Of a stretch of 64,000 bases of DNA, positions 5,188 through 48,689 are shown one piece after another. A program made the translations under genes and the position numbers. Where the stretch lies: contig CBDBHB010000008.1 of NCBI GenBank assembly GCA_965205505.1, positions 1 through 64,000 on the forward strand. Reading direction: 5' to 3'. Under the pieces are notes generated by a model. It did not search any database, was not told the origin of the DNA, and was given only the letters and a program-made list of their open reading frames with translations. Source of the stretch: Acidobacteriota bacterium (GTDB lineage: Bacteria; Acidobacteriota; UBA890; WLXD01). Position 1 is the first letter of the stretch, and each line of letters starts with the position of its first letter.

Positions 5188-5462
5188 TAGTGGCCTGTAA
5201 CAGATGATCGTCGCATATCGCAGATGGGATTTGCGGGTGAGATCAAGGCGCGGCGAGGAAGGCGATGCAATAGGCATCATCGACGAGGCGCAACGCCGAT
5301 ATCGCCCGCAACTGCCCATCTGTCCGCAGGATGGCTGCGAAATCGGCCCGTCTGCGGCGTTACTCCTCCTCCAAGATGGGCAAACATCGTCTCGTCGTCG
5401 CGCCTGGCATCCGGACCCATTTCGCCACCACGATATGCAACGATCATCTGTTACAGGCCACT
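5188..5462. repeat. ERIC-like cloverleaf miniature element, copy 1 (right end split by the IS110 insertion; final A at 6869)
   Basis: TIR TAGTGGCCTGTAACAGATGATCGTCGCATATCG (5188-5220) vs 5431-5462, 1 mismatch; two inverted internal hairpin arms with CAAGGCG...CAACGC; central TCC-GCA-GGA. Confidence 0.85.
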
Positions 5463-5499
5463 TCTATGAGAAGGCCTAGTTCGGTCAAGGGCAATGTGG

Positions 5500-5700
5500 T
5501 GCCCAGCGAAGAATCGATCTGCACGCCATGCTCCTATTCGCACTCTGGTGGACGAGGATTCAGGTCGTCCGGTGCATTCTGGGGTCCGTCCCGATTCGAG
5601 GCGCTGCAATCTAGCTGCCGAGCTCGAAGCTCGTAGTGACCTTCGCAGTCGCCCGGACCGGGCGGTCAGATCGATAACCGTTGGGTCGCGTCGCCCTACC
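5500..5700 (-). ncRNA. Predicted bridge RNA / seekRNA of the IS1111-group element
   Basis: Closing stem ATCGATCTG/CAGATCGAT; target-binding loop CTGCGA-[AGGTCACT]-A-CGAGC-TTCGA-GCTCG-GCAG-[CTAG]-A-TTGCAG (5604-5648) matches the insertion target; RNA ends not known. Confidence 0.7.
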
Positions 5701-5722
5701 GACCTCCTGGTTGCGGGTTAGT

Positions 5723-6769
5723 TCATGCTGCTGAAACCTCTACAGGTGCGCGCAACGGTTCGTACTCGTCTCCACTCAGCCACAGTCGGTGCAGCACAAC
5801 GGCGAGCTTACGGGCGACAGCAACTGCTGCCTTTTTGTTGCCATGAGGACCACCGCGTCCGGCCAGCTTGAGCCCCCAGCGTCTGAGCTCAGTATCGGGC
5901 CCGAAGGGGCCCAGGATGTAATGCGCCGAGCCCACCAACAGGCGTCGGAGCATTTTGTCGCCCGCCTTGGTTATTCGTAGCGCAGGGTCCTTGTCCCCCG
6001 ACTGCCGTTTCTTCGGTCTCAGTCCCAGGTACGGGCCCACGGCTCTGGAGGTATTGAACCGCTCCGGCTCCTCGAGCGTCAGCACATACGCCAGTGCGGT
6101 CAGAGCTCCGACCCCGGCCACTTGCTGGAGCTGCTGTGTCTCCGGGTATCGCCCCTGGCACAGCTGCACGATCTGACGCTCGTATTGCTGGATGTTGCCC
6201 GTCAGCATGGCGATCGTTTCAAGCACCGGCTCGAGCGCTCCCTTGAGCCGCTCCGGTATGTGCTCTGGCGCGGTGCGCGCGAACGCCGGCGTCGAGCACC
6301 TGGGAATACGACAACCGGCCGACTTGACCGCACCACGCACATGGCTCACCAACTGCGTGCAGCTCTTTACCAGAGCATCTCGGCTCCGAATCACGGCTAG
6401 ATCCGCTCGCGCTTGTCTGCCTCGATGCTGCACCGTCTTAAGCAGCTTTGGGTCCATTCTGCCCACTCGTGCCAGGTGCTCGGCATCCAACCGGTCGGTC
6501 TTGTCGTGCTCGCCATAGATCAGCTTCAGCCGCCTCGGGTTAGCCACCAGCACCTCATGACCCAGTTGCTTCAACTGCTCACTCATCCACGGCGAGTGCG
6601 TTCCAACCTCCAGCACTACTCGAGCGGGCTCCTCGCACCCGAACCGCCTCGCCAGCCCCTCCGGGCTCGTCCTCACCCGCCCTTCCTCCATCACCCTGCC
6701 CTTACTGTCGAGCACGCACATACGGCTGTACCGGTCGCTTACGTCCAGTCCAATCGTTACACTTGTCAT
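5723..6769 (-). CDS. IS110 family DEDD transposase/recombinase
   Basis: IGLDVS, VLEVG, KTDRLD (RuvC-like DEDD); GVGALTA; GLRPKKRQSG (conserved Ser); AVARKLAVVLH. Confidence 0.96.
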   Translation of the reverse strand: MTSVTIGLDVSDRYSRMCVLDSKGRVMEEGRVRTSPEGLARRFGCEEPARVVLEVGTHSPWMSEQLKQLGHEVLVANPRRLKLIYGEHDKTDRLDAEHLARVGRMDPKLLKTVQHRGRQARADLAVIRSRDALVKSCTQLVSHVRGAVKSAGCRIPRCSTPAFARTAPEHIPERLKGALEPVLETIAMLTGNIQQYERQIVQLCQGRYPETQQLQQVAGVGALTALAYVLTLEEPERFNTSRAVGPYLGLRPKKRQSGDKDPALRITKAGDKMLRRLLVGSAHYILGPFGPDTELRRWGLKLAGRGGPHGNKKAAVAVARKLAVVLHRLWLSGDEYEPLRAPVEVSAA

Positions 6770-6770
6770 C

Positions 6771-6854
6771 GGCCAACCTCCTTGGGCTTCGAGCCCGTTA
6801 CGTTTGAAGAAACGTTTGCAGAGCCGTCAGGCTACTGCGTTCAGGAGGTTGGCC
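6771..6854 (-). promoter_or_regulatory. 12-bp stem sequestering the transposase Shine-Dalgarno
   Basis: GGCCAACCTCCT (6771-6782) and AGGAGGTTGGCC (6843-6854) are inverted; on the minus strand the 3' arm is GGAGG-TTGGCCG-ATG. Confidence 0.6.
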
Positions 6855-6866
6855 TTCTCATCTCAT

Positions 6867-7652
6867 CTAGACGTCCCGCAGCGGCGCCAGGAGGGAACGC
6901 AGGTGCGCGTGCACATGCCCGTTCGTCGCCACGATGTTGCGGCCATGGAGCAGCTTCTGCAGGTCGTCGTTGCCAGCACAATCGGTCACGCGGCCACCCG
7001 ACTCGCTCACCAGCAGGATCCCGGCCGCCACATCCCAAGGCTCCAGGTGCAGCTCCCAGAAGCCGTCGAAGCGACCACAAGCCACCAGGGCGAGGTCCAG
7101 CGCAGCCGACCCCAGCCGGCGCAGCCCGCCCGCCACCGCACCGACGCGCGGAACGTTCTCGAGGTTGTTGTCGGCAAGAGTGTCGCGCGCGTAGGGAAAC
7201 CCGGTGGCCAGAATCGCATCGCTCAGGTCGGCCGTATCGGAGACGGCTGCCGGAGCACCATCCAGCGTCGTGCCACCGCCACGCCGGGCAGCGAAAGTCA
7301 TCTGCAACATCGGAGCGTGCACCACGCCCGCAACCAATTCTCCATCCTCGATCACCGCAATCGCGACGCACCACAAAGGGAGGCCATGGAGAAAATTGAC
7401 CGTGCCGTCGAGCGGATCGATCACCCATAGGCGATCCGAGCCGACGCGACGACGGCCAGACTCCTCGGCCAGCACATCGTCTTCGGCGGGGATCCGGTCC
7501 AGAATCCAGCGCTCCGTCTCCACATCGGCGGCACTCACGAGATCGCGCCGACGGCCACCTTTGCGATCGGCGTGCGCGGCATTCAAGCTGCCGTAGTACC
7601 CCATCAGAACGGTACCGGCACCGTGGGCGAGGTCGACGAGCTGATCCAACAC
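6867..7652 (-). CDS. suhB: Inositol monophosphatase family protein
   Basis: DLVSAAD, LAEESG, WVIDPLDGTVNF, RRLGSAALDLA, WDVAAG; GTG 7652 taken as start. Confidence 0.9.
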   Translation of the reverse strand: MLDQLVDLAHGAGTVLMGYYGSLNAAHADRKGGRRRDLVSAADVETERWILDRIPAEDDVLAEESGRRRVGSDRLWVIDPLDGTVNFLHGLPLWCVAIAVIEDGELVAGVVHAPMLQMTFAARRGGGTTLDGAPAAVSDTADLSDAILATGFPYARDTLADNNLENVPRVGAVAGGLRRLGSAALDLALVACGRFDGFWELHLEPWDVAAGILLVSESGGRVTDCAGNDDLQKLLHGRNIVATNGHVHAHLRSLLAPLRDV

Positions 7653-7789
7653 GGGGGCTCCCGATGGCGAGTGGTACCGACCCCGGGCAAACAGCCGCGC
7701 GGCTACGCGACGCTGCACCCCGGCAGAATGTCACACGGGCAGTATCGCCGATCAGCGCGTCGCGCGGGAAGCGCCCTCCGGGAGCAGCC

Positions 7790-8488
7790 TCAGTAGGCTT
7801 CGAGGCCTTCTTTGTCGAGCACCCAGATAACTCGATCGCTCGACTCTACCAGCCCTTCACGACGGAAACCGTTGAACGCCATGCTGGTGGTTTCTCGGGT
7901 CGATCCGACCAGCTGGCCGAGGTCTGTCTGCGTCAACCGGAGCCCGATTCGCACGCCGCGATCATCGGGAGCACCGCAGTCGTCGGCGAGCCGAACGAGG
8001 GCGTGTGCCAGCCGCGTCCGTACATCCTCGGACAGCAGCGCAATCATACGGTCTTCGATCTCCGCCTTGCGCTTGGCGATGACCGCCGTGACCCAGCCCG
8101 AAAGGTCCGGATGCTGCGCCAGGTAGCCCGCGAATCGGTCACGCTCGATGACGCAGATGAACGCGTCGGCGGCGATCTGGGCGTTGTCGCGGCGCCGATC
8201 GGCACCTATCAGCGCCGTCTCACCGAACATCGCGCCGGGGCCCTCGAAACCGAAAATGACCTGCTTACCGCCGGCGATCTCGCGATACAACTTCACCGTT
8301 CCAGTACGCAGGACGTAGAAGTGATCGCACAGATCACCCGCCCGAAAGACATCTTCGCCGCGCTTGAAGAGACGCAGGTCGGCAATGTTCACCAGCTGCT
8401 TGAGCTCCCAGTCGGCCAGCGTCTTGAACATCCCCATCTGCTTGAGATGCCAGTACTTGGCCTGCGAGATCGCCGAAGACGCTTCCAT
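7790..8488 (-). CDS. Crp/Fnr family transcriptional regulator
   Basis: cNMP domain (G.VKL, FGE) plus HTH LTQTDLGQLVGSTRETTS; GGAGGAG RBS before ATG 8488. Confidence 0.92.
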   Translation of the reverse strand: MEASSAISQAKYWHLKQMGMFKTLADWELKQLVNIADLRLFKRGEDVFRAGDLCDHFYVLRTGTVKLYREIAGGKQVIFGFEGPGAMFGETALIGADRRRDNAQIAADAFICVIERDRFAGYLAQHPDLSGWVTAVIAKRKAEIEDRMIALLSEDVRTRLAHALVRLADDCGAPDDRGVRIGLRLTQTDLGQLVGSTRETTSMAFNGFRREGLVESSDRVIWVLDKEGLEAY

Positions 8489-8559
8489 CCCTCTCCTCCG
8501 CGATCGAACTCTCGTGAACACCTTACACCGCCCGCACTTCCTGCTTTTCATAGGGCGGT

Positions 8560-8700
8560 TTGCCGTGGGCGGCGCGTTGGTTACAGTCCTTTCGCGGCGA
8601 TTTGCGACGGCTACCCGGAGGCTTGGCGCGGGTTCGACAAGAACTCCAACGCAGAACCGGTCCGTGCCAGACCCACCACACTTTCACCACGGGCTGCTAG
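8560..8700. repeat. Degenerate fourth copy of the cloverleaf element (one intact TIR)
   Basis: CCAGACCCACCACACTTTCACCACGGGCTGCTA (8667-8699) equals the copy-3 TIR with 1 mismatch; residual CCCGGAGG centre and shortened arm with CCAACGC. Confidence 0.7.
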
Positions 8701-9367
8701 CTTGCCGCCGTTTCCGGCCGTACAGACTCCAGAGATAACCCAACAGGAAGCCGGTCAAGCCCAGGACCAGGATGCCACCGGTATGCCCCATCAGCACGTG
8801 CGCAGCGTCCGAGTACGGGCAGAGCATGCGCCACGACGCCTCGGCGGCGAACCCTGCTCCAGTGCCGGTCAGGAATCCTGCTACTAGCGGCCGCTGCGGC
8901 AACGTGCGAGCCACCAGCCACGCGATCAGCACCAGCGCTGGCAGGCCGATCAGCGACTCGGCTCGAAAACAGCCCATCCACATCGTTACCGTGCCGCCAC
9001 TCGACATGGGGGCGCGAACGAAGATCAGCAGGTTGACAGCGATCTGCAGCACGTAGGCGATCAAGACGAAGGCGAAGATCTTGGTGGACGAGACGTGCCA
9101 GCCCGGAATCCCTTCGCGTAGCGCAAAGATCAGCAATGCCAAGGCGAGCAGTACCTGAATGGCGACAGGAACCCACGCCAGCATCATGCCGAGCTCGCCC
9201 GTATCGCGCAGCTGGTTGTATGCGAAGGGCATCGCCATCGCCGCGAGCATCACCGGCAGCACGACCAGCAACCGCCTCCAGGGTGGTTGCAGCGGTGTCA
9301 CGGACTCGAGACGGTCCCCGATCGCCAGGCGCAGACGATCCGGCAGGTCGGGGTGTGACGCTGTCAT
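8684..9367 (-). CDS. NrsF/DUF1109-like membrane anti-sigma factor
   Basis: Follows the ECF sigma with ATGA overlap; ~6 TM segments, conserved C (MGCF), WRMLCP..D..HVLMGH. Confidence 0.75.
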   Translation of the reverse strand: MTASHPDLPDRLRLAIGDRLESVTPLQPPWRRLLVVLPVMLAAMAMPFAYNQLRDTGELGMMLAWVPVAIQVLLALALLIFALREGIPGWHVSSTKIFAFVLIAYVLQIAVNLLIFVRAPMSSGGTVTMWMGCFRAESLIGLPALVLIAWLVARTLPQRPLVAGFLTGTGAGFAAEASWRMLCPYSDAAHVLMGHTGGILVLGLTGFLLGYLWSLYGRKRRQASSPW

Positions 9368-9927
9368 GCCGGCACCCGGTCGGCGCCGAAAATCCGCCGC
9401 AAGTCCTGCATGCCTCGGAACGCTCGAAGTTTGGCGGCACGCTCGCTGATACCGAGCATGTTACCGATCTCCCGGAACGTAAATCCCCAAACGTGATGCA
9501 GTAAAAGCGATTCGCGGCGGTTCTCCGCGACATCGAGCAGCGCCTGGCCGAGATCATCACGCTCGGGAAACAGCTCCGCAATGGGAGCTACGGGGATTTC
9601 CGGCGGCACTTCCGGGCTCGGTCCCTCATGTTTGGCCAGACGTGCTGCCGAACGCCGGTACATCAGGTACACGTGTCGGGCTATCCCGAATGCCCAGGGT
9701 TTGACGGGCCGCCCTGGCATGTAGGTGTGCCGCGAGCGATGCATCTGCAGAAACGTCTCCTGCATCAGGTCCTCGCCCCGGGACAGATCACGGGTAAGCG
9801 AGGTGAGGTAGTTGCGTAGCGGCACCGAGAGGACAGCGAACAGCTCCTCGAAAGCCTCGAGCTTGCCGTTCTGGTAGCCGACCATGCATTCGGCCAGCCG
9901 ATCTGGCGAGACATCCTCTAGTCCCAC
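9364..9927 (-). CDS. ECF RNA polymerase sigma factor
   Basis: EDLMQETFLQMHRSRHTY, KPWAFGIARH, GFTFREIGNMLGISERAAKLRAFRG; start uncertain. Confidence 0.9.
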   Translation of the reverse strand: MGLEDVSPDRLAECMVGYQNGKLEAFEELFAVLSVPLRNYLTSLTRDLSRGEDLMQETFLQMHRSRHTYMPGRPVKPWAFGIARHVYLMYRRSAARLAKHEGPSPEVPPEIPVAPIAELFPERDDLGQALLDVAENRRESLLLHHVWGFTFREIGNMLGISERAAKLRAFRGMQDLRRIFGADRVPA

Positions 9928-10179
9928 TTCCGTAACCTTTGCCCTTCGCAGTCGCTTGGTTTCCGTTTCCCGTCTTCTGCCGCGCTGAAGTCCTTTGTGC
10001 AGAACGAAAAAAGGGTTTCGGGAGCGCGGGATCGGGAGATTACCATTCTCACTGACGACCGCCCAGCTGTGATGCAACGTGTCGTGGCAACTGTCCTGAG
10101 ACCCTGAAGTTTTCGATTTAGTGTAGAACCGGCCGGCTCCATGGAGTGGGTCCGCCAAGCGTAGTCGCTGGAGGCTGAC

Positions 10180-10767
10180 GTGAAGAAGCTATTGATCCTG
10201 ATGGTGCTGGCAACGGCCGGCGCGTTTCTGGCCCCTCCGGCTTGGGCGCAGCAAGACCAGGAAGCCGCTCTGTTCGGCGGCTATTCCCTCTTGCGACTCA
10301 ACCAGGGAGATAACGTGGAGCGGGCCACCATCCACGGCTTCGTGGCCGACTACACATACTTCATGGACCGCCGTTTCGGCTTCGTGGTGAGCGGCACTTA
10401 CCATAAGGGGCCGACGGATGCGAGCACCAACGCATTCGCTGTGCCCGAGTTCGACTTCCGCCAGTACACCTTGCTCGCCGGGCCTCACGCCGTGCTGTGG
10501 CGGGGCCACACGTCGGAAGCTGGATTACGTGCGCTAGCGGGCGCCGGCTGGCGTAGGTTCCGGACCTCCGATGGAGGAGTCGAGGTGAGCGATAACGTCG
10601 AGTTTACCTGGGCTATTGAGGCACATCTCGACGTGCGGCTCTCTGACCACATCTGGCTTCGCGCCCTACAGCCGGCGATCGTTCGCACGCAGTTCAATGA
10701 CATCAAGCGTACCGACTACCGACTGAGCATAGGTCTGGTGCTGCACGCCGGGAACATCCTGCAGTAG
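10180..10767 (+). CDS. Outer-membrane beta-barrel protein
   Basis: Signal peptide, LFGGYS start, amphipathic strands, RLSIGLV near the C-terminus; GGAGG RBS. Confidence 0.7.
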   Translation: MKKLLILMVLATAGAFLAPPAWAQQDQEAALFGGYSLLRLNQGDNVERATIHGFVADYTYFMDRRFGFVVSGTYHKGPTDASTNAFAVPEFDFRQYTLLAGPHAVLWRGHTSEAGLRALAGAGWRRFRTSDGGVEVSDNVEFTWAIEAHLDVRLSDHIWLRALQPAIVRTQFNDIKRTDYRLSIGLVLHAGNILQ

Positions 10768-10857
10768 GCTCGTCGGGCAGCAAGCCTCCGCCGGGCGAGC
10801 TTCCCACCGACACCCAGGGCCGGCGACACTCGCGACGCCGTCGTAGAATCGGCGGCA

Positions 10858-13518
10858 ATGTCCACCCGCCCCACACCTCTGTCTGAAGTCGACCCGCGCG
10901 AGACGCGCGAGTGGATCGAAAGTCTCGAGGCCGTTCTGCACCACGACGGCCGCGAGCGCGCCGCGTTCCTCCTGGCTCGCCTTGCTGATCGCGCCCGCCT
11001 CGACGGCATCGAGGTGTCGACGCTTCCATCGCGCTATACGAACACCATCGGCGTCGACCGCCAGCCCTCTTATCCCGGCGACCTCGAGCTCGAAGCCCGA
11101 ATCTCGGCCTGTGTGCGTTGGAACGCCATGGCAATGGTGGTGCGGGCGAATCGCCAGGCGCCCGAGCTCGGCGGCCACCTGTCGACCTATGCCTCCGCCG
11201 AGGCACTCTACGAGGTCGGCTTCAACCACTTCTTCCGTGCTCGCACCGATGAGCACGCCGGCGACCTGGTCTATTTTCAAGGGCACTCGTCGCCCGGGAT
11301 CTACGCGCGCGCCTTTCTCGAAGGACGCCTGACCGAGGAAGATCTCGACAGGTTCCGACGCGAGGCGGAGGCCGACGGACTGTCGTCGTATCCACACCCC
11401 TGGCTCATGCGTGACTTCTGGCAGTTTGCCACCGTCTCGATGGGCCTCGGCCCGATCATGGCGATCTACCAGGCTCGTTTTCTGCGATACCTGGAGAACC
11501 GCGGCCTCACTCCTCGCAGCAACCGTAAGATCTGGGCTTTCCTCGGCGACGGCGAGATGGACGAGCCCGAGTCCATGGGCGCCATCACGGTGGCGGCTCG
11601 CCAGGGACTGGACAACTTGGTGTTTGTCGTCAACTGCAACTTGCAGCGGCTCGATGGCCCGGTACGCGGTAACGGCAGCATTGTGCGCGAGCTTGAGGCA
11701 GTGTTCCGAGGCGCCGGGTGGAACGTTCTGAAGGTGCTTTGGGGAACGGACTGGGACGAGTGGCTCACCGGACCGCACGCCGACTTGCTCGTGCGTCGCA
11801 TGGAGGAGGCGGTCGACGGCGACTACCAGGCCTACGCCGCAGACGGCACAGGCAAGTTGCTGCGTGAGGAGTTCTTCGGCCGCTACCCGGAGCTCGCCAG
11901 CCTGGTGGAGAAGATGACCGATGCGGAGATCGCCGCCATGCCGTCGCGGCGTGGCGGTCACGACGAGCGCAAGGTCTACGCGGCGTTCGCCGCGGCCGTA
12001 GCACACCGCGGTCAACCGACGATCATCCTGGCCAAGACCATCAAAGGCTATGGACTGGGGACCGCCGCGGCGCGCAACCCGACCCACCAGCAGAAGAAGC
12101 TCTCCGACGCGGGGATTCGCGCATACCGCGATTGGCTCGACCTACCGATCCCCGACGAGGAGATCGACGCCCTGCCCTACGTACAACTCCCCGATAGCGC
12201 CGCCAAGTATCTGGATGAGCGCCGCGCGGAGCTCGGCGGCGCGTTCCCATCACGACGAGTCGTCGCCGAGCCGCTGGAGGTGCCTGCGCTCGACGCCTTC
12301 AAGGCGCAGCTGAAACCATCTGGCGATCGCGAGTTCTCCACCACGATGGTGTTCGTTCGTATTCTGTCGACGTTGTTGCGCAACGAGGCCATCGGCCCGC
12401 GTGTGGTTCCGATCGTGCCTGACGAGGCGCGCACCTTCGGCATGGAGGGCTTGTTCCGGCAGGTCGGCATCTACGCTCCTTACGGACAGCTCTATACACC
12501 GACCGATCGTGACCAGCTCGCCTACTACCGCGAGGATCAGGACGGCCAGATTCTGCAAGAGGGAATCACCGAAGCCGGCGCGTTCTCTTCGTGGATAGCC
12601 GCCGCGACGGCGTATGCAAACCACGATCTGCGCATGATCCCCTTCTATATTTACTATTCCATGTTCGGGCTACAGCGCATTGGCGACCTCGCGTGGGCCG
12701 CCGCCGACATGCAGGCCCGTGGCTTCCTGCTCGGAGCCACCTCGGGACGAACCACGCTGGCCGGCGAAGGCCTACAGCACACGGATGGACACAGCCACGT
12801 GCTGGCCTCGGCGATCCCTACTTGCCGAGCCTACGATCCAACCTACGCCCACGAGGTCGCGGTCATCATCCAGCATGGTTTGCAGGCGATGTACGTCAAC
12901 GACGAAGCGGCGTTCTACTACGTCACACTGATGAACGAGAACTACCCGCACCCGGGATTGCCCGAGGACGCTGCCGACGGCATCGTGCGGGGCATGTATC
13001 TGCTCCGAAGCGCGGCAGCGACACCGCAGGTGCAGCTGATGGGTAGCGGCGCGATCCTGCGCGAGGTCGAGGCTGCCGCACAGATGCTGGGCAACGATTT
13101 CGACGTCGCCGCTGATGTTTGGAGCGTCACCAGCTTTACCGAGCTCGGCCGCGACGGCATGGCGGCAGCGCGCTGGAACCGTCTCCACCCGGAAGCGCCG
13201 GCGCGCCGCTGTTTCGTTCAGCAGCAGCTAGCCGAGCGTCCGGGACCGGTTGTCGCCGCGACGGACTATTTGGAGACGTTCGCGGAGCAAGTCCGACCAT
13301 TTGTCGAGCGTCGGTTCGTCGCCCTGGGCACCAACGGCTTCGGGCGCAGCGACACACGCGCAACGCTACGCTCCTTCTTCGAGGTTGATCGTCGCCATGT
13401 CGTCGTCGCGGCCCTGAAAGCACTTGCCGACGACGGCGTGGTCGGACCGGAGACGGTAACCACCGCGATCAACAAGTACGATATCGACCCCGACGCTGCC
13501 GACCCGGCAACCGTCTAG
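10858..13518 (+). CDS. aceE: Pyruvate dehydrogenase E1, homodimeric type
   Basis: DPRETREWIES, GGHLSTYAS, TVSMGLGP, GDGEMDEPES...NCNLQRLDGP, PDEARTFGMEG, GFGRSDTR. Confidence 0.98.
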   Translation: MSTRPTPLSEVDPRETREWIESLEAVLHHDGRERAAFLLARLADRARLDGIEVSTLPSRYTNTIGVDRQPSYPGDLELEARISACVRWNAMAMVVRANRQAPELGGHLSTYASAEALYEVGFNHFFRARTDEHAGDLVYFQGHSSPGIYARAFLEGRLTEEDLDRFRREAEADGLSSYPHPWLMRDFWQFATVSMGLGPIMAIYQARFLRYLENRGLTPRSNRKIWAFLGDGEMDEPESMGAITVAARQGLDNLVFVVNCNLQRLDGPVRGNGSIVRELEAVFRGAGWNVLKVLWGTDWDEWLTGPHADLLVRRMEEAVDGDYQAYAADGTGKLLREEFFGRYPELASLVEKMTDAEIAAMPSRRGGHDERKVYAAFAAAVAHRGQPTIILAKTIKGYGLGTAAARNPTHQQKKLSDAGIRAYRDWLDLPIPDEEIDALPYVQLPDSAAKYLDERRAELGGAFPSRRVVAEPLEVPALDAFKAQLKPSGDREFSTTMVFVRILSTLLRNEAIGPRVVPIVPDEARTFGMEGLFRQVGIYAPYGQLYTPTDRDQLAYYREDQDGQILQEGITEAGAFSSWIAAATAYANHDLRMIPFYIYYSMFGLQRIGDLAWAAADMQARGFLLGATSGRTTLAGEGLQHTDGHSHVLASAIPTCRAYDPTYAHEVAVIIQHGLQAMYVNDEAAFYYVTLMNENYPHPGLPEDAADGIVRGMYLLRSAAATPQVQLMGSGAILREVEAAAQMLGNDFDVAADVWSVTSFTELGRDGMAAARWNRLHPEAPARRCFVQQQLAERPGPVVAATDYLETFAEQVRPFVERRFVALGTNGFGRSDTRATLRSFFEVDRRHVVVAALKALADDGVVGPETVTTAINKYDIDPDAADPATV

Positions 13519-13542
13519 GACCGACCGACACCGGAGACGAAG

Positions 13543-14817: not shown

Positions 14818-14826
14818 AAAGCCGCG

Positions 14827-16605: not shown

Positions 16606-16618
16606 CAGGCCGTGGTGC

Positions 16619-24779: not shown

Positions 24780-24822
24780 CGGTCGCTGTCCGTCGGCCTG
24801 CCAGTGTCCTGACTCAGGCCAT

Positions 24823-25099
24823 TAGTGCTCCTGATCATAAGTACGGTGACGTTTGTGGCGCGCGCGACCGGGGCGAATTGTAGGAGCGGCGATGAGGGCG
24901 ATGCTGGGTGTATCGTCGAGGCGCCGCGACGCCCAAGGTGGCCGGTCCCGCGGCCACCCGGAGGGCAGGAGCGATAGGCGGGCGATCTCCGCGTCAGGGC
25001 TCCTCGAGGATGGCTAAGGCATCGCCTTCCTCACCCTTCCTTGATCTCGCCCGCATCTCGCTCCTGCAAACGTCACCGTACTTATGATCAGGAGCACTA
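24823..25099. repeat. ERIC-like cloverleaf miniature element, copy 2 (277 bp)
   Basis: Perfect 33-bp TIR TAGTGCTCCTGATCATAAGTACGGTGACGTTTG; arms 24856-24956 and 24966-25066; centre CCC-GGA-GGG. Confidence 0.9.
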
Positions 25100-25106
25100 G
25101 TGGCCC

Positions 25107-25571
25107 CTAGCATCTCCCTCGCGCCTGCCGCTCTCGCAAGCGCTCGGCGTCGTCCGGGGCACCGGTGCCGGACGAGCCCAGGAAGATCTTGGTGCCGTCG
25201 GTGAAGGTGACGTCGCGACCGTTCGCACGCTTGAGCGAGTGATCCTTGGTCTGATAACCGTCGACGATGATCTCGGTGCCGTAGGTCAGGCAATCGCGTC
25301 GCAGCCCGCGACGCAGGAGCACGTTGGGTGTGCCGCCCTCTACCATCCACACCACTGTGGTGCCGTCGTCGCTAACGACCTCCAGATGAATCCAGGAGTG
25401 GGGGTTCACCCACTCGAGCTTCACCACTTTGCCGGCGAGTCGGATCGGCGCGTCGCGGTCAAACTCGGCGCCAAAGGCATGGTGCGCCACCAGGGGTGCC
25501 GCGTAGACGAGAGCTGCGAGGACCACGATGCCCCCGATCAGCGTCAAGCGTTTTGTTGGCAGTGTATTCAT
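25107..25571 (-). CDS. DUF6152 family secreted protein
   Basis: Signal peptide then AHHAFGAEFD...WVNPHSWIH...WMVEGGTPN. Confidence 0.8.
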   Translation of the reverse strand: MNTLPTKRLTLIGGIVVLAALVYAAPLVAHHAFGAEFDRDAPIRLAGKVVKLEWVNPHSWIHLEVVSDDGTTVVWMVEGGTPNVLLRRGLRRDCLTYGTEIIVDGYQTKDHSLKRANGRDVTFTDGTKIFLGSSGTGAPDDAERLRERQARGRC

Positions 25572-32239: not shown

Positions 32240-32514
32240 CCAAAGTCATGACCCCATCCAAGCCAGGATCAGGCGGGCACTGATGCCCAACGCCGCGATG
32301 GCAAGCCATACCCACGCCGGTGTTCGTTTGTTGTCAGTGTTGTGCGGTGGTTCGGATTCGTTTTCCATCTTTCACCTCCGCTAGTGTCCTGAGTCAGGAC
32401 ACTAACTGTTCGTTCCGCGGCGCCGTTCCTTTGCGCAACTGGCCCTCGTCCTCGGGCGCCTCTAGTCGGTCGTCACAGTCGGGGTGCACACTGCTTCGGA
32501 CACGCACCCGGACG

Positions 32515-39686: not shown

Positions 39687-39758
39687 GACCGGCGATCTGG
39701 AAGGCCGAGGCTGATCGACCATAACCCCGACCACCTACCAAGTCCTGGTGATCGCCCG

Positions 39759-41217: not shown

Positions 41218-41410
41218 AGGGCGGTTTTCGGCAGATACGGCTGCTTCGGTCGTTGCCGGTGTCGCCTCACTCGTAGGAGTAGGTTCCGCTTGGTACGTAT
41301 GCCCCGGATACGTAGCCCTCCGGTTCTTTACCCTGGCTTTCCCTAGCGACCGACGGGCCCGGTGCTAAGCTCACGACTTCTACCCTAACCACGGTCGCGG
41401 AGCTGTGTTC

Positions 41411-42130: not shown

Positions 42131-42134
42131 CGCC

Positions 42135-43514
42135 ATGCACCGACTGTTTATCAAGATCTTCCTATGGTTCTGGCTGGCGATGGCGTTGGTGTGGTCGGCG
42201 TTCTCGCTGCCCACCCAGCTAACCCAGAATGAAGACGTCGTCGACCGGTTTCGGGCACTCACCGGACAACGGCTGGTGCTCGCCGGACGAGTGGCGGTCA
42301 GTTTGGGTCGCCGATCGGATGAGGCAGTCGCTCAGTTCATGTCGGATCTAGAAGAGGAGGGTGCGCCCTACCCCTTCGTGTTCGATGTCGAGCTCAACGA
42401 GGTAACCGGGCGGTTGGCGCCCGAGGAAGCACGGGCGACGGCGGCCGAGGCTTTCGACAACGGGGTCGTTCACGGCGGGTTCAGTGGCTCCGGCCCCTAC
42501 GCCGGACGCTCGTTCGTGGATCGCAACGACAATACCTATACGGTCGTGCAGCGCCTCCCGAGCCGTCTCGACCTGCCGCCACCCAGCGTGCTGCCCATCG
42601 TCATCCGATGGTTGGCCGTGCTGCTGACGTCGGGCCTGGTTTGCTACGCGATGGCGCGCTACACGCTGTCGCCGGTCAGCACGCTCAGCGCCGCAACCCG
42701 GCGCTTTGCGGAAGGCGAGCTCGACACACGTGTGAGCGGCGATCTCGGCGGGCGCCGTGACGAGCTTGCCGCCCTGGGGCGCGACTTCGACGATATGGCC
42801 GAGCGAATCGGCACGCTGCTAGAGAGCCAACGACAGCTCCTCAGCGACATCTCTCACGAGCTACGCTCGCCACTTGCGCGACTGTACGTTGCGCTGGGCC
42901 TGGCGCGCCGTCAAAGCGACGATTCAGCGGCAAATGCGCTCGACCGCATCGAGCAGGAGACCGAGCGACTCAACGAGCTGATCGGCCAGTTGCTGGCGTT
43001 GACCCGCTTGCAAGACCCCGAGTCACTCGCCGATCGGCAGCCGGTGGATCTTGTCGCCCTGGTTCGCGCGGTGATCGATGACGCCGACTACGAAGCCCGA
43101 GAGTGCGGCAAGTCAGTGCAGCTCGATATCGCCGGAGCCTGTACTACGCGAGGGTTCGAGGAGCTGTTGCGGCGCGCCATCGAGAACGTGGTGCGCAATG
43201 CGATTCGCTATACGCCACCCGGATCAGCAGTGCAGGCGTCGCTCAGCGTCGCCCAGAACAACGGTTCTACGGAGGCGACGATCCACGTGCGCGATCACGG
43301 GCCGGGCGTACCCGACGACGAGCTCGACCGCCTGTTCCAACCGTTCTATCGGGTGGGCTCGGCGCGCGACCGAGAGCGCGGCGGCACCGGCTTGGGGCTG
43401 TCGATCAGTCAGCGAGCCGTGCGGGCCCACGGTGGCACAATCAGCGCTACCAACCCCGACGATGGTGGTGTCCTCATAGAGATCAAATTGCCGGCGTCGA
43501 CCGACCGCGCCTAG
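42135..43514 (+). CDS. Sensor histidine kinase (CpxA-like)
   Basis: 2 [33 protein letters not shown]. Confidence 0.95.
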   Translation: MHRLFIKIFLWFWLAMALVWSAFSLPTQLTQNEDVVDRFRALTGQRLVLAGRVAVSLGRRSDEAVAQFMSDLEEEGAPYPFVFDVELNEVTGRLAPEEARATAAEAFDNGVVHGGFSGSGPYAGRSFVDRNDNTYTVVQRLPSRLDLPPPSVLPIVIRWLAVLLTSGLVCYAMARYTLSPVSTLSAATRRFAEGELDTRVSGDLGGRRDELAALGRDFDDMAERIGTLLESQRQLLSDISHELRSPLARLYVALGLARRQSDDSAANALDRIEQETERLNELIGQLLALTRLQDPESLADRQPVDLVALVRAVIDDADYEARECGKSVQLDIAGACTTRGFEELLRRAIENVVRNAIRYTPPGSAVQASLSVAQNNGSTEATIHVRDHGPGVPDDELDRLFQPFYRVGSARDRERGGTGLGLSISQRAVRAHGGTISATNPDDGGVLIEIKLPASTDRA

Positions 43515-43578
43515 TCACATCTGGCAAACCCGTGCAGCGCCCTTGCTGTCGCCTGGCCCGGTGCCCGCCGCGACGTAC

Positions 43579-43914
43579 CTATAGAACCACCGTGCGCAGG
43601 ATCGTCGTGACGAGTGCGATCACCACGGCTCCGAGGATGGCTGGAATCCAGCCGTCGATCTGGAATCCCTTCACGAGGGCCGAAGTGAGCATCAACAACA
43701 CCGCGCTGACGACGAAAGTGAACAATCCGAGCGTCATGAGGTTGAGCGGCAGCGCCAGCAGCATCAACAACGGCCACAAGGCCGCGTTGGCGAGCCCCAG
43801 CACCATGGCCGCGATCAGCGCAGTGCCGAAGTCCCGCACTTTGAAGCCCGGAACGATGTAGGTGGTTGCCAGGAGAGCCCCAGCGCTGATGAGCCACAGA
43901 ACAAGGAGCCGCAT
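43579..43914 (-). CDS. YvlD / 4-TMS 'phage holin family' membrane protein
   Basis: ALIAAMVLGLANA.L.PLL.LL.LPL..MTLGLF.FVV. Confidence 0.85.
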   Translation of the reverse strand: MRLLVLWLISAGALLATTYIVPGFKVRDFGTALIAAMVLGLANAALWPLLMLLALPLNLMTLGLFTFVVSAVLLMLTSALVKGFQIDGWIPAILGAVVIALVTTILRTVVL

Positions 43915-43965
43915 GAAACGGTGCCTCCGTGTGGAGTTACGTTCAGTTGTGCCGTCCGGGCGCGT

Positions 43966-44400
43966 TCAATTTATCCACTGGAAGAACTCCACCGTATAGC
44001 CGCCCGGGTCGCGCACCAGGAAGGCGCGTACGGGAACGTTGGCGGAATCTGCCGGGTTACTAAGAATCTCGACCCCGGCCCGGCTCAGGAGCTCATGCCA
44101 GGCATCGACGTCCGTAGTGACGAAGCTGAGCATGACCGCGTTGTCATCGCGCGACCGATGCGCGCCACGGCTCTCGTCGACGATCCCCACCGAGGCTGTC
44201 GGCGTGATCGCGAAGATCCTCACCCACCCCTGATCGAAGGTTGGCCGGAGCTGCAAAACGCCCTCGTAGAAGCTCGCGGCGGCCTCGAGGTCAGCGTAGT
44301 ACAGAAACGTGACCTGCGAATCGATGGGCGGCGGTGGCGGCACCGGCGCTTGCGGGAGCAGGGCGGCGAGCAGTAGGGCCCACGAGATTGCGGTGGTCAT
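43966..44400 (-). CDS. Secreted VOC/glyoxalase family protein
   Basis: Signal peptide; TFLYYADL.AA..FY; FLVRDPGGYTVEF. Confidence 0.8.
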   Translation of the reverse strand: MTTAISWALLLAALLPQAPVPPPPPIDSQVTFLYYADLEAAASFYEGVLQLRPTFDQGWVRIFAITPTASVGIVDESRGAHRSRDDNAVMLSFVTTDVDAWHELLSRAGVEILSNPADSANVPVRAFLVRDPGGYTVEFFQWIN

Positions 44401-44483
44401 CGTTCCTCCCTTGGCGAGCAGGCGCTCAGGACCCCTGCACAGCATTGCACCCGGAGCCGTTCGACGTCAGCATCGCACCGGTA

Positions 44484-45425
44484 TCAGAGCCCCGGCAAGC
44501 GCACCGACTCCGGGTCGCTCGGAAGGGCGATGATCGTCCCGCGCTCGCCATCGACAATCTCCTTCAGCTCGCTCAAAGAGCCAATCGCCGCCGTGCCCCC
44601 GGCAAGCTCGGCGAACCGGCAAGCCGCCTCGACCTTCGGTCCCATCGAGCCGGCGCTGAAGCTCTCGTGCAGCAACTCTTCTGGCGTCGCTCGCCGGATG
44701 GCCTCCGCCTGCGGCGTTGCCCATCCCCGATACACAGCATCAACGTCGGTGGCCATGACCAGCATGTCGGCGTTGAGCTCAACTGCCAGCAGAGCGCTGG
44801 CAAGATCCTTGTCGATGACGACCTCGGCACCACCTAGCTTCCCCTCCTCGTCATACATCGTCGGGATACCACCCCCACCGGTGCAGACGACGATCACCCC
44901 CTGCTCCACGAGCCAGCGAATCGGACGGATCTGGAAGATGTGCTGCGGTCGCGGCGACGGCACCACGCGCCGCCAGCCGGCGCCATCGGGAGCCACCGTC
45001 CAGTCGCGCTCGGCTGCAAGTCGCTTTGCCTCGGCCTCGTCATACATGGGGCCGATCGGTTTGGTCGGATGATCGAACGCCGGATCCTCCGGATCGACCT
45101 GGACCATCGTGAGAATAGTGGCGAAGGGTTGTTCGTACGGCAGCAGATTTCCCAGCTCCTGTTCGATCAGGTACCCGATCATGCCTTCGGTCTGGGCGCC
45201 AAGCACATCCAGGGGGAAGGCTTCGACGGCATCATAGGCATCGGCCTGCAACGCCAGCAGACCCACTTGCGGCCCGTTGCCGTGCGAGATTACGAGCTGG
45301 TGCTCCTTCGCCACGGGCGCCAGGGCAGCCGCCGCCAGCCGGACGTTGAGTCGCTGCTGCGCGCTGCTCACCGGCTCGCCGCGGCGCAGGAGGGCGTTGC
45401 CGCCGAGCGCCACTACGATACGCAT
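44484..45425 (-). CDS. arcC: Carbamate kinase
   Basis: [44 protein letters not shown]. Confidence 0.95.
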
Positions 45426-45537
45426 GCGGGTTTCCGGGGCACGCGTCGTCTCAACAGGCCACTAGTGCGATCGGTCATAGCGTGGCTGGCGCCGGGAGGC
45501 CCGCATCCGGCGGCTCGGCGGCAGGCGCCCGCCGTGA

Positions 45538-46278
45538 TCAGCTCCCCGCCAGTTGGTCGAGGATCTCGCGTAGCTTCGCCTGAATTCGGCGGACGTTCTG
45601 CGGCCCCATGCGTAGCAAGTGTTTCTGCGGCAGGCTCAGTCCCTCCAGCGCGTCGTCGCGATACGTCAGACGCCCGACCGCATCGACCAGCTCGGGAGGG
45701 TCATCGACCACTGGTGTTGCCAGCAATGCACCGAATGCTTGTCGCAGACGCGGCTCGAAAGGGCGCTCCTCGCCGATCAGCTCTGTGTACGCGGCGTCTG
45801 CCAGCAACTCGACGCGCCGAAATGCGCTGACGGCAGCGCGCGCATCGAGGTCTGCGAGCGCCACCCCGACGGAGTCGTAGCGCCGGTAGCTGCCGGGATC
45901 CATGTACCAGGCATCGTCCCGATAGAGCGCATCGAAAGGCTGCTCGGGCGCCAGGAACGACAGGTGCCTTCCTGGGCTCTCACCGCTGGCCACAGCGTCG
46001 ACGACGGCAACGAAGCGTCGCATCACGTCCGAATCCTCGAGCGCCTTGGCGAGCAGCGGAGCCAGTCCGAGCATGGACGTGGCGCGGCGCACGATGTCGT
46101 CGCTGCCATCGAGCGCTGGCAAAGGCGGTTCCGGCTCCGCGATCGGCAGCGGCACAGTCAACGACTCGACGACGGCCGCCGGCTCTTCGACCGGCGGCTC
46201 TTCGCCGCCGCGGAAGTACCATACGGCGGCCACAATAAGCAGAATTACCGCAGCGGCGATCAGTGCGGGACGTTGCAC
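45538..46278 (-). CDS. DUF3014 domain protein
   Basis: N-terminal anchor; LP.LDGSD, RRFVAVVD, SYRRYD, LEGLS..QKHLLRMGP.N. Confidence 0.85.
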   Translation of the reverse strand: MQRPALIAAAVILLIVAAVWYFRGGEEPPVEEPAAVVESLTVPLPIAEPEPPLPALDGSDDIVRRATSMLGLAPLLAKALEDSDVMRRFVAVVDAVASGESPGRHLSFLAPEQPFDALYRDDAWYMDPGSYRRYDSVGVALADLDARAAVSAFRRVELLADAAYTELIGEERPFEPRLRQAFGALLATPVVDDPPELVDAVGRLTYRDDALEGLSLPQKHLLRMGPQNVRRIQAKLREILDQLAGS

Positions 46279-46364
46279 GACGGACCTCCAGGATCTCGAG
46301 AACGCTACTTCATCCTACACGAGCTCCCACAGCTTGCGCCGGAAACGCGCCCGCCGCCCCGCGT

Positions 46365-47303
46365 CTACCTCGAGCTCTTCAGGAAACGTAGAAACTCCCC
46401 ATTGGTGCCGAGCAGCATCGTCGTATCCTGTCTCAGTGTCTGCTGATATACCTCCAGCGTCTTGACGAACCGATAGAAATCGGCGTCGCGGTTGTACGCC
46501 TGGGCGTACACATCGGCGGCCGTGGCGTCGGCGGTTCCCATGATCTCCTGCGCCTGGCGATACGCTCCCGAGCTGATCGTACGCAGCTCACGTTCCTTTT
46601 CGCCGCTGATCCGCGCCGCCTCTCCGGCGCCCTCCGATCGAAACTGCTCGGCAATTCGCAGCCGCTCCGAGATCATGCGGTTGTATACCTCGCGCCGCAC
46701 TTCCTCGACATAGTTGATGCGCTTGAAGCGAAAGTCGAGGATCTCGATCCCCAGATCGGACGTCCGCCCCTGCGCCGCGGCCAGGACCTCGGACGCCAAC
46801 ATATCTCGGCCGGACTCGATATCCGCCACCGTCTCGCCCTCGGCGATGGCACCGAGCTCGTCGCCCGCCGCGATGTCGCGGTTGGTACTACGCACCACCT
46901 CGATCAGGTCGTGGTTGGCGATCGTGTTGCGGGTCTCGCCGTCGAGAATGTCGTCCAGGCGCGACTGGGCACCACGCTCGTCGCGAAGCCGCTGGAAGAA
47001 CAACAGAGGGTCAGTGATATGCCATCGCGCATAGGTATCGACGTGGATGAAGCGCTTGTCGCGCGTCGGCAGCTGGTTGCTGTCGCCGTCCCACTCCAGA
47101 AACATCTTGTTGAAGAAATTCGCCGTCTGGATGAACGGCAGCTTGTAGTGCAGCCCGGGTGTATCCACCGCATCACCGACCGGCGAGCCGAACTGGGTGA
47201 TGACCACTTGCTGAGTCTCGTCGACGACATAGACAGCCCCGCTGAACGCCAAAACGGCTGCGACCAACAGGATTCCGAGTAACACCATTCCTGTCTGCTT
47301 CAT
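46365..47303 (-). CDS. hflC: Protease modulator HflC
   Basis: QVVITQFG, PGLHYKLPFIQ, RMISER, RSEG.GEA. Confidence 0.95.
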   Translation of the reverse strand: MKQTGMVLLGILLVAAVLAFSGAVYVVDETQQVVITQFGSPVGDAVDTPGLHYKLPFIQTANFFNKMFLEWDGDSNQLPTRDKRFIHVDTYARWHITDPLLFFQRLRDERGAQSRLDDILDGETRNTIANHDLIEVVRSTNRDIAAGDELGAIAEGETVADIESGRDMLASEVLAAAQGRTSDLGIEILDFRFKRINYVEEVRREVYNRMISERLRIAEQFRSEGAGEAARISGEKERELRTISSGAYRQAQEIMGTADATAADVYAQAYNRDADFYRFVKTLEVYQQTLRQDTTMLLGTNGEFLRFLKSSR

Positions 47304-48328
47304 TGGCTTGGCTCCTGGCTAGCGATCGCCGCCGGGAGCGCCGGTTGCATAAGCCCCCCCTGGAGGTTGAGCAGCGGCAGGAGCCCGTCGATGTCCTGGT
47401 CGATGATCACCTTCTGCCGGATGGATGGCAGCAAGTCGAGCATGGTCTCGAGGTACAGGCGACGGCGCGTGACCTCCGGCGCCCGGCGGTACGCTTCGTA
47501 CACCGCCAGGAAGCGGGCCGCGTCGCCTTCGGCGCGGTTCACCCGGTCGACCGCATAGCCCTGAGCCTGCTCCACGGCCCGCAACGCCTCACCGCGGGCG
47601 GCGGGAACCTCGCGATTAAACTGCGCCCGCGCGTCGTTGATCATACGCTCGCGCTCCTGCTGCGCCTGATTGACCTCGTTGAACGATGGCCGTACCGGAT
47701 CCGGTGGGTTGACGTCTTGGAGAACGATCTGCTCGACGCGAATGCCGGTCTCGTACTGGTCGCACATCTCCTGCAATCGTCGCTCCACCTCCGACGCGAT
47801 CTCCTGGCGCCCAATGGTCAGCACCTCGGTGACGCTGCGGTCACCCACCACGGTTCGCATCACGGTCTCGTTCATGTCTCGGAAGGTTTCCGTGATGTTT
47901 CGAACTTTGAACATGTAGAGGTACGGGTCGGACACTCGGTATTGCGTCGTCCACTCGACCACGGCGACGTTGAGATCGCCGGTAAGCATGGCCGACTCCT
48001 CGGCCACCGAATCGAACTGCGACCTGACATCGGCGCTCACGGTGCGGAAGCCGAACTCCTGTTTCAGCTGCCGCTGCACCGGCACCTTCCATACCACCTG
48101 AATTGGCGCAGGCAGCTTGAAATGCAACCCCGGCTCGTTCGACGATGTGTACTCGCCGAACGTCAAGATCACCCCGACTTCCTCGGGGGACACCGTATAG
48201 ACGGTGCTCCACAACAGCACTAGACCAATGATGACGGCGGGAATCAGCGCCATCATTCGACCCGATAATTGGATATTGGGCGGGCGGAACTCGCCCACCT
48301 TCAGATTGCCGAAATCACCACGTTCCAT
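47300..48328 (-). CDS. hflK: Protease modulator HflK
   Basis: MLTGDLN, VNPPDPV..SF.EVN.A.QE, APEVTRRRLYLE. Confidence 0.95.
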   Translation of the reverse strand: MERGDFGNLKVGEFRPPNIQLSGRMMALIPAVIIGLVLLWSTVYTVSPEEVGVILTFGEYTSSNEPGLHFKLPAPIQVVWKVPVQRQLKQEFGFRTVSADVRSQFDSVAEESAMLTGDLNVAVVEWTTQYRVSDPYLYMFKVRNITETFRDMNETVMRTVVGDRSVTEVLTIGRQEIASEVERRLQEMCDQYETGIRVEQIVLQDVNPPDPVRPSFNEVNQAQQERERMINDARAQFNREVPAARGEALRAVEQAQGYAVDRVNRAEGDAARFLAVYEAYRRAPEVTRRRLYLETMLDLLPSIRQKVIIDQDIDGLLPLLNLQGGLMQPALPAAIASQEPSQ

Positions 48329-48412
48329 GTCCGGGCTCCTTTGCACACGTGGACAGAGACACTTCCACTACGGCTTGCTGGGGTCTGCGTCAAGACACTA
48401 GGGTATCGCGTA

Positions 48413-48689
48413 TAGCAGGCCGTGGTGAAAGTGTGGTGGGTCTGGTTACGGCGAGTTGGGGCCAGATGCAAGGCGGCCTGACACTGGCGATGCCCTAGCC
48501 ATCGTCGAGGAAGGCCAACGCCGCAAGTGGCCCCAAATCGCCGTAACCCTTCGGGCGACAGGGGGTTGCGCGCGTATGCTGCGTCGTTCCTCGTCAACGA
48601 TGGCGTAACCATCGCCTCCTTCTCTCTCCTTGCCTCCACTTCGCAAGACCCTGTCGCCAGACCCACCACACTTTCACCACGGCCTGCTA
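48413..48689. repeat. ERIC-like cloverleaf miniature element, copy 3 (277 bp)
   Basis: Perfect 33-bp TIR TAGCAGGCCGTGGTGAAAGTGTGGTGGGTCTGG; arms 48446-48546 and 48556-48656; centre CCC-TTC-GGG. Confidence 0.9.

Follow-up and report, generated by a model that had tools for sequence, protein, structure and literature searches.

What kind of element keeps one folded interior between ends that differ from copy to copy? Three intergenic elements, here c1, c2 and c3, raise this question in a 64,000-nucleotide stretch of an Acidobacteriota genome (the window). A first-pass annotation had read them as a double-ERIC repeat or a structured RNA, recognised by its shape and possibly belonging to an undescribed mobility system.

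Anatomy and copy number

The annotated coordinates and architecture (terminal inverted repeat, arm A, 9-nt mini-hairpin, arm B, terminal inverted repeat) were confirmed for all three elements, which are listed here with the insertion sequence (IS) that adjoins c1.

5188..5462, no strand assigned: c1, IS630-type MITE, subfamily sf2, last base displaced to 6869; left end 5188-5220, arm A 5221-5322, mini-hairpin 5323-5331, arm B 5332-5430, right end 5431-5462
5463..6868, minus strand: IS110-family insertion sequence, 1406 bp, inside the terminal CTAG of c1; transposase ORF 5723-6769 (minus strand)
24823..25099, no strand assigned: c2, IS630-type MITE, subfamily sf1a; left end 24823-24855, arm A 24856-24956, mini-hairpin 24957-24965, arm B 24966-25066, right end 25067-25099
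48413..48689, no strand assigned: c3, IS1182/IS5-type MITE, subfamily sf0; left end 48413-48445, arm A 48446-48546, mini-hairpin 48547-48555, arm B 48556-48656, right end 48657-48689

Each element is 275-277 bp long, a MITE-like short length with no transposase gene inside; the ORFs overlapping c1 are chance ORFs only. The segments measure 33+101+9+101+33 nt in c2 and c3, whose ends are perfect 33-nt inverted repeats, and 33+102+9+99 nt plus a truncated end in c1, whose ends are 32-nt inverted arms of 97% complementarity. The last base of c1 stands at 6869 because the 1406-bp IS110-family element split its terminal CTAG. The two arms of ∼101 nt share a conserved asymmetric core and are mirror-oriented about the tiny central hairpin; when the six arms of c1-c3 were aligned, one common core emerged, flanked by outer stems that differ. 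Folding as single-stranded DNA gave a branched form (z = -14.4 for c3 and -9.1 for c2), and 0 of 200 shuffles folded as well. The 3-bp mini-hairpin is absent from these energy folds, its support being limited to an invariant CCC/GGG stem, a loop that varies and, in c1, a single TCC/GGA exchange.

A profile built from the six arms gave 373 arm matches in the genome and 116 convergent arm pairs, which correspond to 113 distinct full-length loci, c1-c3 being three of them. The 116 pairs cluster as 47, 38, 21, 4, 4, 1 and 1. The elements of the window represent the three abundant subfamilies, with 46 (sf0, c3), 38 and 19 (sf2, c1) distinct full loci. Ends are conserved inside two of these subfamilies; the 38-locus cluster is a mix of three end classes, and four of its 38 elements are chimeras with a different end class at each tip.

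Insertion at CTAG and the families behind the ends

Comparison with relatives bore out the earlier proposal of non-autonomous mobile elements inserting at CTAG. In G004, a genome of the same genus, the sites orthologous to c1, c2 and c3 are all empty and hold a single CTAG, which argues against an element that is always present and immobile. At the c2 site, G001 and G003 lack an insertion as well, and G002 has a c3-type element; within the genome under study, c3-type copies are 97-98% alike and polymorphic. CTAG lies on both flanks of 46 of 72 two-ended sf0 elements and of 22 of 26 sf1a elements. As to the length of the duplication, asymmetric flank variants in this genome fit a duplication of TA, at a frequency no higher than point mutation would yield, and two copies in G007 that are flanked on each side by CTAA agree with a duplication of 4 bp; the sf1a flanks and the single-CTAG empty sites are compatible with 2 bp and 4 bp alike.

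Of 203 two-ended elements, ∼111 have a length of 270-289 nt. The 80 that are shorter split into 69 clusters of six members at most, and arm deletions are many and independent. Full-length forms alone multiply, and the short derivatives may simply be young dead copies. The window also holds solo ends and other small remnants.

276..308, plus strand: solo end, sf3-like (IS5-type) class
5177..5187, no strand assigned: 11-nt partial IS630-type end (CTAGTGGCCTC), directly 5′ of c1; missing at the G004 empty site
8672..8699, minus strand: solo sf0-type end without arms
24801..24822, no strand assigned: collapsed remnant with another IS630-type end, adjoining c2; also present in G004
25100..25110, no strand assigned: extra GTGGCCCCTAG after c2; missing in G004
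32382..32404, no strand assigned: 23-nt mini-palindrome of two IS630-type ends, a collapsed element

The extra GTGGCCCCTAG may be a footprint or another collapsed remnant. The annotation had proposed to look for longer versions enclosing an ORF; in this genome, sf0 end pairs lying 1369, 2199 and 4832 bp apart hold ordinary genes and no transposases.

To which transposons do the ends belong? Six DDE_3 matches lie in the genome, among them a 1183-bp IS with two intact copies of 381 aa; the genome's IS630-family transposase matches PF13358 at 1.1e-22 together with HTH domains, and a second IS is present in four copies. Among 80 related IS loci a terminal repeat was found in 69, 62 of which start TAGTG or TAGTC after C. 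We aligned ends over 26 nt and scored them against 2000 shuffles. The ends of IS-C matched those of c1 with a score of 12 (shuffle mean -1.9, sd 2.8) and the ends of IS-A those of c2 with a score of 11 (shuffle mean -2.4, sd 2.7), each attained by 0 of 2000 shuffles, whereas cross-family pairs were at chance (869 and 521 of 2000). The match to IS630 is partial, ∼19-20 of 26 bases, with indels for c2. The annotated view that the terminal repeats share little sequence thus does not apply to c1 and c2, whose ends are diverged versions of one end type; it stands for c3, whose ends belong to an unrelated transposon family. A 1503-bp IS at four loci in G011, a genome of the same order, starts TAGCAGGCCGTGGTGAAAGT and is identical to c3 in 20 of 20 end bases. 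It encodes a 472-aa protein with DUF772 at 2.6e-19 and matches to DDE_Tnp_1_6 (21.9 bits) and DDE_Tnp_1 (17.1 bits) that are both under the Pfam cut-offs; a related IS, of 358 aa and matched 109 times in G007, carries the sf3-like end and passes the cut-offs for DUF772, DDE_Tnp_1_6 and DDE_Tnp_1.

Searches of G000-G004 with PF13751, PF05598 and two protein queries found no c3-type transposase in the genus; G000, the genome under study (96% complete, nine contigs), has no match to PF13751 or PF05598, nor to PF13586 or PF13340. Two sets of candidate partners were rejected. The single PF01609 IS (C8:559.6 kb) is IS903-like (PF13737), differs at its ends (14 of 23 bases by eye) and lacks CTAG flanks; the remaining multi-copy ISs have ends unlike those of the MITEs and transposases that look IS3-like by eye.

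The annotation's own suggestion was that an undescribed enzyme recognises the shape and the internal motif, the end sequence being irrelevant. Some observations agree with it: the arm model matches in 41 of 151 genomes of the phylum, where other families carry other ends, so that the interior is more widely conserved than the ends; young, polymorphic c3-type copies occur in a genus where our search found no cognate transposase; and multiplication is restricted to full-length forms. However, the sf0 ends are strongly conserved across an order, the ends match those of the IS630 family and of IS1182/IS5-like elements, and CTAG is a known target of IS630 and IS5 elements. It is common for MITEs to lack a resident partner, and the abundant IS110-family element uses the ends as its target and does not carry them. 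We therefore regard recognition by shape and internal motif as very unlikely indeed, and an undescribed mobility system is unneeded. The annotation had itself named cognate transposases that separately explain each terminal repeat as the outcome that would count against it; this is what was found, with IS630 accounting for the ends of c1 and c2 and an IS1182/IS5-like element for those of c3.

The IS110-family neighbour of c1 has the DEDD transposase domains PF01548 (1.4e-17) and PF02371 (5.4e-17). All 27 of its 27 full-length copies sit at one ...CAGGCCACT^AG site, that is, in the ends of IS630-type MITEs.

Taken together, the ends, the target and the empty sites suggest that c1-c3 are very probably MITEs with CTAG as insertion site, mobilised in trans by DDE transposases binding their 33-nt ends. 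The transposases would be of the IS630 (Tc1/mariner-like) clade for c1 and c2 and IS1182/IS5-like for c3.

The conserved interior

The covariation that had been noted in the stems is strong. Across 21 elements, drawn from 21 genomes, pairing holds in 96.4% of cells, against 85.5% after shuffling, and double changes occur in 42 of 88 pairs, a count as high in 0 of 500 shuffles and at most 13 in slid controls; in the arms alone, 22 of 31 pairs show double changes. Pairing is thus kept by compensatory change. The same interior lies between ends of two unrelated transposase families. A scan of 53 IS loci with the arm model found an arm inside none of them, and blastn-short of the three elements against IS bodies revealed no IS-derived interior; both searches met arms or matches in neighbouring MITEs only. 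Judged by these comparisons, the interior is a shared module that does not stem from the insertion sequences identified here.

Strong covariation and highly stable folds would likewise be expected if the elements served mainly as genes or cis-elements of a structured RNA, for instance a stabiliser or regulator, and spread besides. Moreover, for 54 of the 116 copies the TAG closes an adjoining open frame of 100 codons or more, which makes co-transcription probable for many; the share of element TAGs that close a long open frame is 28-29%, compared with 21% of all CTAG sites, a weak enrichment. We nevertheless consider this reading, for which no specific support emerged, highly improbable. Departures from pairing comprise ∼28 G-U and ∼25 A-C cells (hand count), and wobble is not favoured on this strand. 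Transversion swaps make up most of the double changes and one-sided intermediates are few, the copies show no preferred orientation towards the adjoining gene (24 versus 17, p = 0.35), and a scan of c3 for sigma-70 promoters and terminators gave 0 promoter-like or terminator-like sites. In Rfam, the sole match in the window at gathering score is a tRNA, and c3 and c2 returned nothing above chance at E up to 10. Contigs from three metatranscriptome runs end at or just inside c3 and none runs across it; contigs break at repeats, and this counts neither for nor against a transcript. The annotated resemblance to ERIC repeats proved to be without sequence support: blastn of c3 against 5,426 Escherichia coli genomes returned nothing at E up to 0.01. 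By blastn, c3 also had no match in plasmids, nor c1 in phages. The pairing looks DNA-level rather than RNA-specific.

A DNA-level, strand-symmetric constraint could, alternatively, come from mutation and not from selection: template switching in quasi-palindromes would copy one side of a stem onto the other, and the interior would be functionless. Matching variants are sometimes present on both ends of single copies, and hairpins are deletion-prone, in keeping with the many arm deletions. Yet private changes in one genome are mostly uncompensated; within sf0 copies, 204 one-sided changes stand against 27 compensated ones, and 22 of these 27 lie at three end positions common to 5-9 copies. The compensated sf0 changes reflect sub-lineages, not in-place repair. 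In addition, the internal loops, rich in purines, and a G-T mismatch within the core are unpaired yet conserved across the phylum, and a symmetrising process would erase them. Template switching as the source of the pairing is therefore highly improbable as well.

A folded module among known MITEs

Within the preferred reading, that of MITEs moved in trans, the interior would have been kept through continued multiplication limited to lineages with the full folded geometry. The most likely reason would be that extruded DNA hairpins draw the two ends together, or that the interior holds a conserved host-factor site. End sets appear to have been swapped between lineages: the CTAG restored at the tips of every element is a target of both IS families, so elements would pile up next to one another and recombine. 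We tentatively raise a further possibility, that the branched two-arm interior is a portable cis-acting transposition helper that, after transplanting between end sets, serves at least two unrelated DDE families; it could act by setting the ends side by side through extruded hairpins or by holding a conserved host factor.

A MITE is usually classified by the ends it has taken from a single parent insertion sequence, with its interior regarded as filler. In the present family the interior is the part kept most widely, with phylum-wide compensatory change and ends of two unrelated transposase families, and if it is indeed portable, then the interior and not the ends would be the heritable 'identity' of a MITE superfamily. 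With this shared, conserved interior, one can test whether a folded DNA module is in itself able to promote hitch-hiking. In practical terms, the elements, their many decay products and the tip-homing IS110-family element account for much of the intergenic repeat content and of the rare CTAG sites in these genomes, and all of them should be masked before searches for small RNAs or regulatory motifs.

The literature that we searched, including passages of PMC11602168, yielded no description of this two-arm MITE family; the closest known systems each share part of its features. IS4321 and IS5075, of the IS110/IS1111 group, insert into transposon terminal repeats, and the IS110-family element here likewise uses one fixed position, in the IS630-type MITE end; unlike theirs, its target is a MITE end and not a Tn21-family repeat. 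The Correia elements of Neisseria are abundant TA-targeting MITEs of ∼100-155 bp with end variants and a functional host-factor site in the interior. They resemble the present elements in abundance, end variants and an interior feature, but there is no sequence relation and the elements here are longer; Correia elements are not known to have paired hairpin arms or to use two transposase families. Like IS5/IS1182-derived MITEs, c3 targets CTAG and shares 20 end bases with an IS whose transposase bears DUF772; in contrast to them, the search of the window's genus yielded no partner, the c3 partner from G011 matches DDE domains below the Pfam cut-offs, and the interior is that of IS630-type elements. 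RUP of pneumococcus and Nezha of cyanobacteria are bacterial MITEs derived from IS630/Tc1-mariner elements. Compared with these, c1 and c2 are likewise small and non-coding, with IS630-like terminal repeats, a CTAG/TA target and many copies, and for the c2 type there is a partner IS in the same genome. They differ in an interior that is not IS-derived, forms a conserved two-arm branched hairpin with compensatory change across a phylum, and is common to MITEs with the ends of another IS family. The MITEs of the present family are ordinary in kind and unusual in design, one folded middle with ends from two unrelated transposon families.

Three window elements and their relatives in the genome

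Re-examination of the sequence bore out the positions and anatomy that the first-pass annotation had given for three elements of 275-277 bp, here called c1, c2 and c3. These and further features of the same genome are:

Window 5188-5462, with a last base at 6869: c1
Window 5463-6868: 1406-bp IS110-family element
Window 24823-25099: c2
Window 48413-48689: c3
Window 61291-61363, minus strand: tRNA gene, the sole Rfam match in the window
Contig C4, 77911-80111: 2201-bp element with 22-nt inverted ends starting TAGTGTCCT

The last base of c1 is displaced because the IS110-family element fills the intervening stretch within the terminal CTAG. Each of the three elements has a 9-nt centre flanked by two hairpin arms of ~101 nt in mirror orientation; the inverted ends are perfect over 33 nt in c2 and c3, and span 32 nt with one mismatch in c1. 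Alignment of the six arms upheld the claim of a shared core within differing outer stems. As single-stranded DNA, c3 and c2 gave branched folds (z = -14.4 and -9.1 vs shuffles, respectively; 0/200 shuffles equally good for either). The 2201-bp element encodes an IS1-like transposase (PF03400 at 9.3e-09), along with a 251-aa protein without a Pfam family.

An nhmmer profile built from the six arms yielded 373 matches in the 5.98-Mb genome, including 116 convergent full pairs that fell into clusters of 47, 38, 21, 4, 4, 1 and 1; c3, c2 and c1 each belong to one of the three large clusters. Once three pairs in duplicated stretches of contig are discounted, 113 distinct full loci remain. Window 43788-52818 (9 kb, including c3) is identical to the final 9 kb of contig C9, and long identical stretches are also common to contigs C3/C4 and C6/C7; assembly redundancy or large repeats are the likely source, with copy counts inflated by 3. 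Ends are conserved within the cluster of c3 (subfamily sf0) and within that of c1 (sf2). The second cluster, of 38 elements, comprises three end classes (sf1a, to which c2 belongs, sf1b and sf1c) and 4/38 chimeras. The core is common to at least ten arm types.

Decay products are numerous and take the form of solo ends, end-to-end stubs of 33-50 nt and one-armed forms. Some elements are lodged within another element, at the apical loop of one of its arms. Composites of ~550 bp with this nesting were seen at C8:236955-237504, C8:899344-899893 and C9:2938807-2939356, and near-identical ones number five or more in the genome, so that copying may have acted on the nested arrangement itself. Outside the window, at C8:961283-962651, 1369 bp lie between two perfect inverted c3-type ends with CTAG flanks. 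This stretch holds a long open frame, taken for an ordinary gene without a family search, and no transposase; it may be a passenger-carrying cassette.

Cognate insertion sequences and the CTAG target

Six DDE_3 matches were obtained in the window's genome, which carries two intact copies of IS-A, an IS630-family element of 1183 bp encoding 381 aa, along with another DDE_3 element, IS-B, present in four copies. Related transposases, 80 in all, were collected from many phyla, the two named records with the best match being Vicinamibacterales MAGs. Ends start cTAGTG or cTAGTC in 62 of the 69 related IS loci in which terminal repeats were found by script. The c2 end scored 11 against IS-A (reached by 0/2000 shuffles), and the c1 end scored 12 over 26 nt against IS-C, an IS630-family element of the same-order genome G007 (shuffles -1.9, sd 2.8; 0/2000 as high). 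Scores of the sf1b and sf1c ends against IS630-family ends exceeded these, at 18 and 16, and cross-family end comparisons scored at chance level. The ends of c1 and c2 belong to the cTAGTG/cTAGTC type of the IS630 family.

No partner IS of the c3 type was found in the window's genome or its genus. An order-wide PF13751 search identified IS1182/IS5-like partner elements in G007 and in a second same-order genome, G011. The IS of G007 (~1310 bp, 109 matches) encodes a 358 aa protein with DUF772, DDE_Tnp_1 and DDE_Tnp_1_6, and its ends scored 13 against the IS5-type end class sf3, a score reached by 0/2000 shuffles. In G011, a 1503-bp IS at four loci begins with the same 20 bases as c3; its 472-aa protein matches DUF772 at 2.6e-19, with DDE matches below threshold. 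Since the ends match IS630-family and IS1182/IS5-like elements, cognate transposases account for each end type, an outcome that the first-pass annotation had itself named as counting against its undescribed mobility system, and we abandon that proposal. In kind the elements are MITEs with apparent IS630 and IS1182/IS5 parentage.

Among two-ended elements, CTAG was present at both flanks in 46/72 of sf0 and 22/26 of sf1a. The motif is scarce genome-wide (5,853 sites vs 50,474 for GATC and 61,486 for TCGA); element tips account for many of its occurrences. Orthologous sites were compared, as had been suggested as a check: in the same-genus genome G004 the sites of c1, c2 and c3 are all empty with one CTAG each, and G001 and G003 of this genus likewise lack an element at the c2 site. 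A fourth congener, G002, carries a c3-type element at the CTAG orthologous to that of c2 (contig C24, locus L201, 1939-2217); the IS630-type MITE of the window's genome and the IS1182-type MITE of G002 are independent hits on one CTAG. Asymmetric flank variants occur in the window's genome and a TA duplication would fit them, but their frequency does not exceed the point-mutation expectation. CTAA borders two of the G007 copies at either end. Short GTGGCC(T/C)C + TAG extras lie beside c1 and c2 (window 5181-5187 and 25100-25110) and are absent from the empty sites of G004; these could be footprints of excision or mini-remnants left by collapsed IS630-type elements.

Constraint on the paired interior

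Across 21 genomes of the order, each represented by one c3-type element, ends and arm cores are conserved and the outer stems covary, with pairing in 96.4% of cells compared with 85.5% in shuffles. The predicted compensatory pairing was confirmed by double changes in 42/88 pairs; 0/500 shuffles were as high, and slid controls gave at most 13. For the arms alone (32 arms, all classes), 22/31 pairs had double changes. An arm covariance model matched 41/151 genomes sampled across the phylum (E up to 1e-5), a tally that takes in the window's genome and the unpublished G071 and becomes 40/150 without the latter. The same architecture carries still other 33-nt ends in other element families. Scanning 53 IS loci with the arm model revealed no arm within an IS body, so these ISs did not give rise to the interior by deletion; all 13 strong arm matches near them lie inside adjoining MITEs.

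The elements had also been read as a possible structured RNA. Departures from pairing comprise G-U in ~28 cells and A-C in ~25 (a hand count that leaves out two pairs in which G-U is the commonest form), transversion swaps make up the majority of double changes, one-sided intermediates being few, and orientation toward the adjoining gene is unbiased (24 vs 17, p = 0.35). Where the core has its one conserved G-T mismatch, the other arm reads A-C on that same strand. These observations are more consistent with pairing constrained in DNA, or equally in both strands, than with an RNA from one strand. RNA contigs end at the repeat and are uninformative on element transcripts.

Stem changes in the c3-type copies of this genome were one-sided in 204 cases vs 27 compensated. 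Because 22/27 compensated changes fall at three end positions common to 5-9 copies, they are sub-lineage markers; the mostly one-sided changes in turn indicate that copies decay without repair and that pairing is kept along lineages still multiplying. About 111/203 two-ended elements are full length, and 80 shorter ones form 69 clusters, the largest being six copies with different junctions. This pattern is as expected if transposition needs the full geometry, though recent, dead deletions might alone account for it.

Possible exchange of ends and a homing insertion sequence

CTAG is the target of both IS families and is rebuilt at the two tips of every element, so that elements and ISs come to stack end to end. 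In G007, a 1207-bp IS630-family element adjoins either a c3-type end or a complete c3-type element in at least 6/9 of the loci retrieved, and ISs abut MITE tips at further loci also. The abutting side of the 1207-bp IS was always the same IS end (L021, L028, L031, L036, L038, L040, L041); it either targets the c3-type tip or travels with it. Chimeras with unlike ends were found, one of them combining an IS630-type left end with an IS1182-type right end. We infer that neighbouring elements could swap end sets if they recombine, or if a deletion joins them, at the conserved cores.

The tips also serve a third IS. All 27 of 27 full-length copies of the IS110-family element, the window copy and 26 further loci, sit at one position, ...CAGGCCACT^AG, the last bases of an IS630-type MITE end or of remnants of such ends. 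The IS110-family element is in effect a homing one, with another mobile element as its landing pad.

No description of the element family was found in Rfam or in those portions of the literature that were searched, including one census paper (PMC11602168). What is new here is that the window's three copies span two transposase families, that the c3 type has an exact 20-base end match, that the arm module is phylum-wide, and that the tip of IS630-type ends is the homing site of an IS110-family element.
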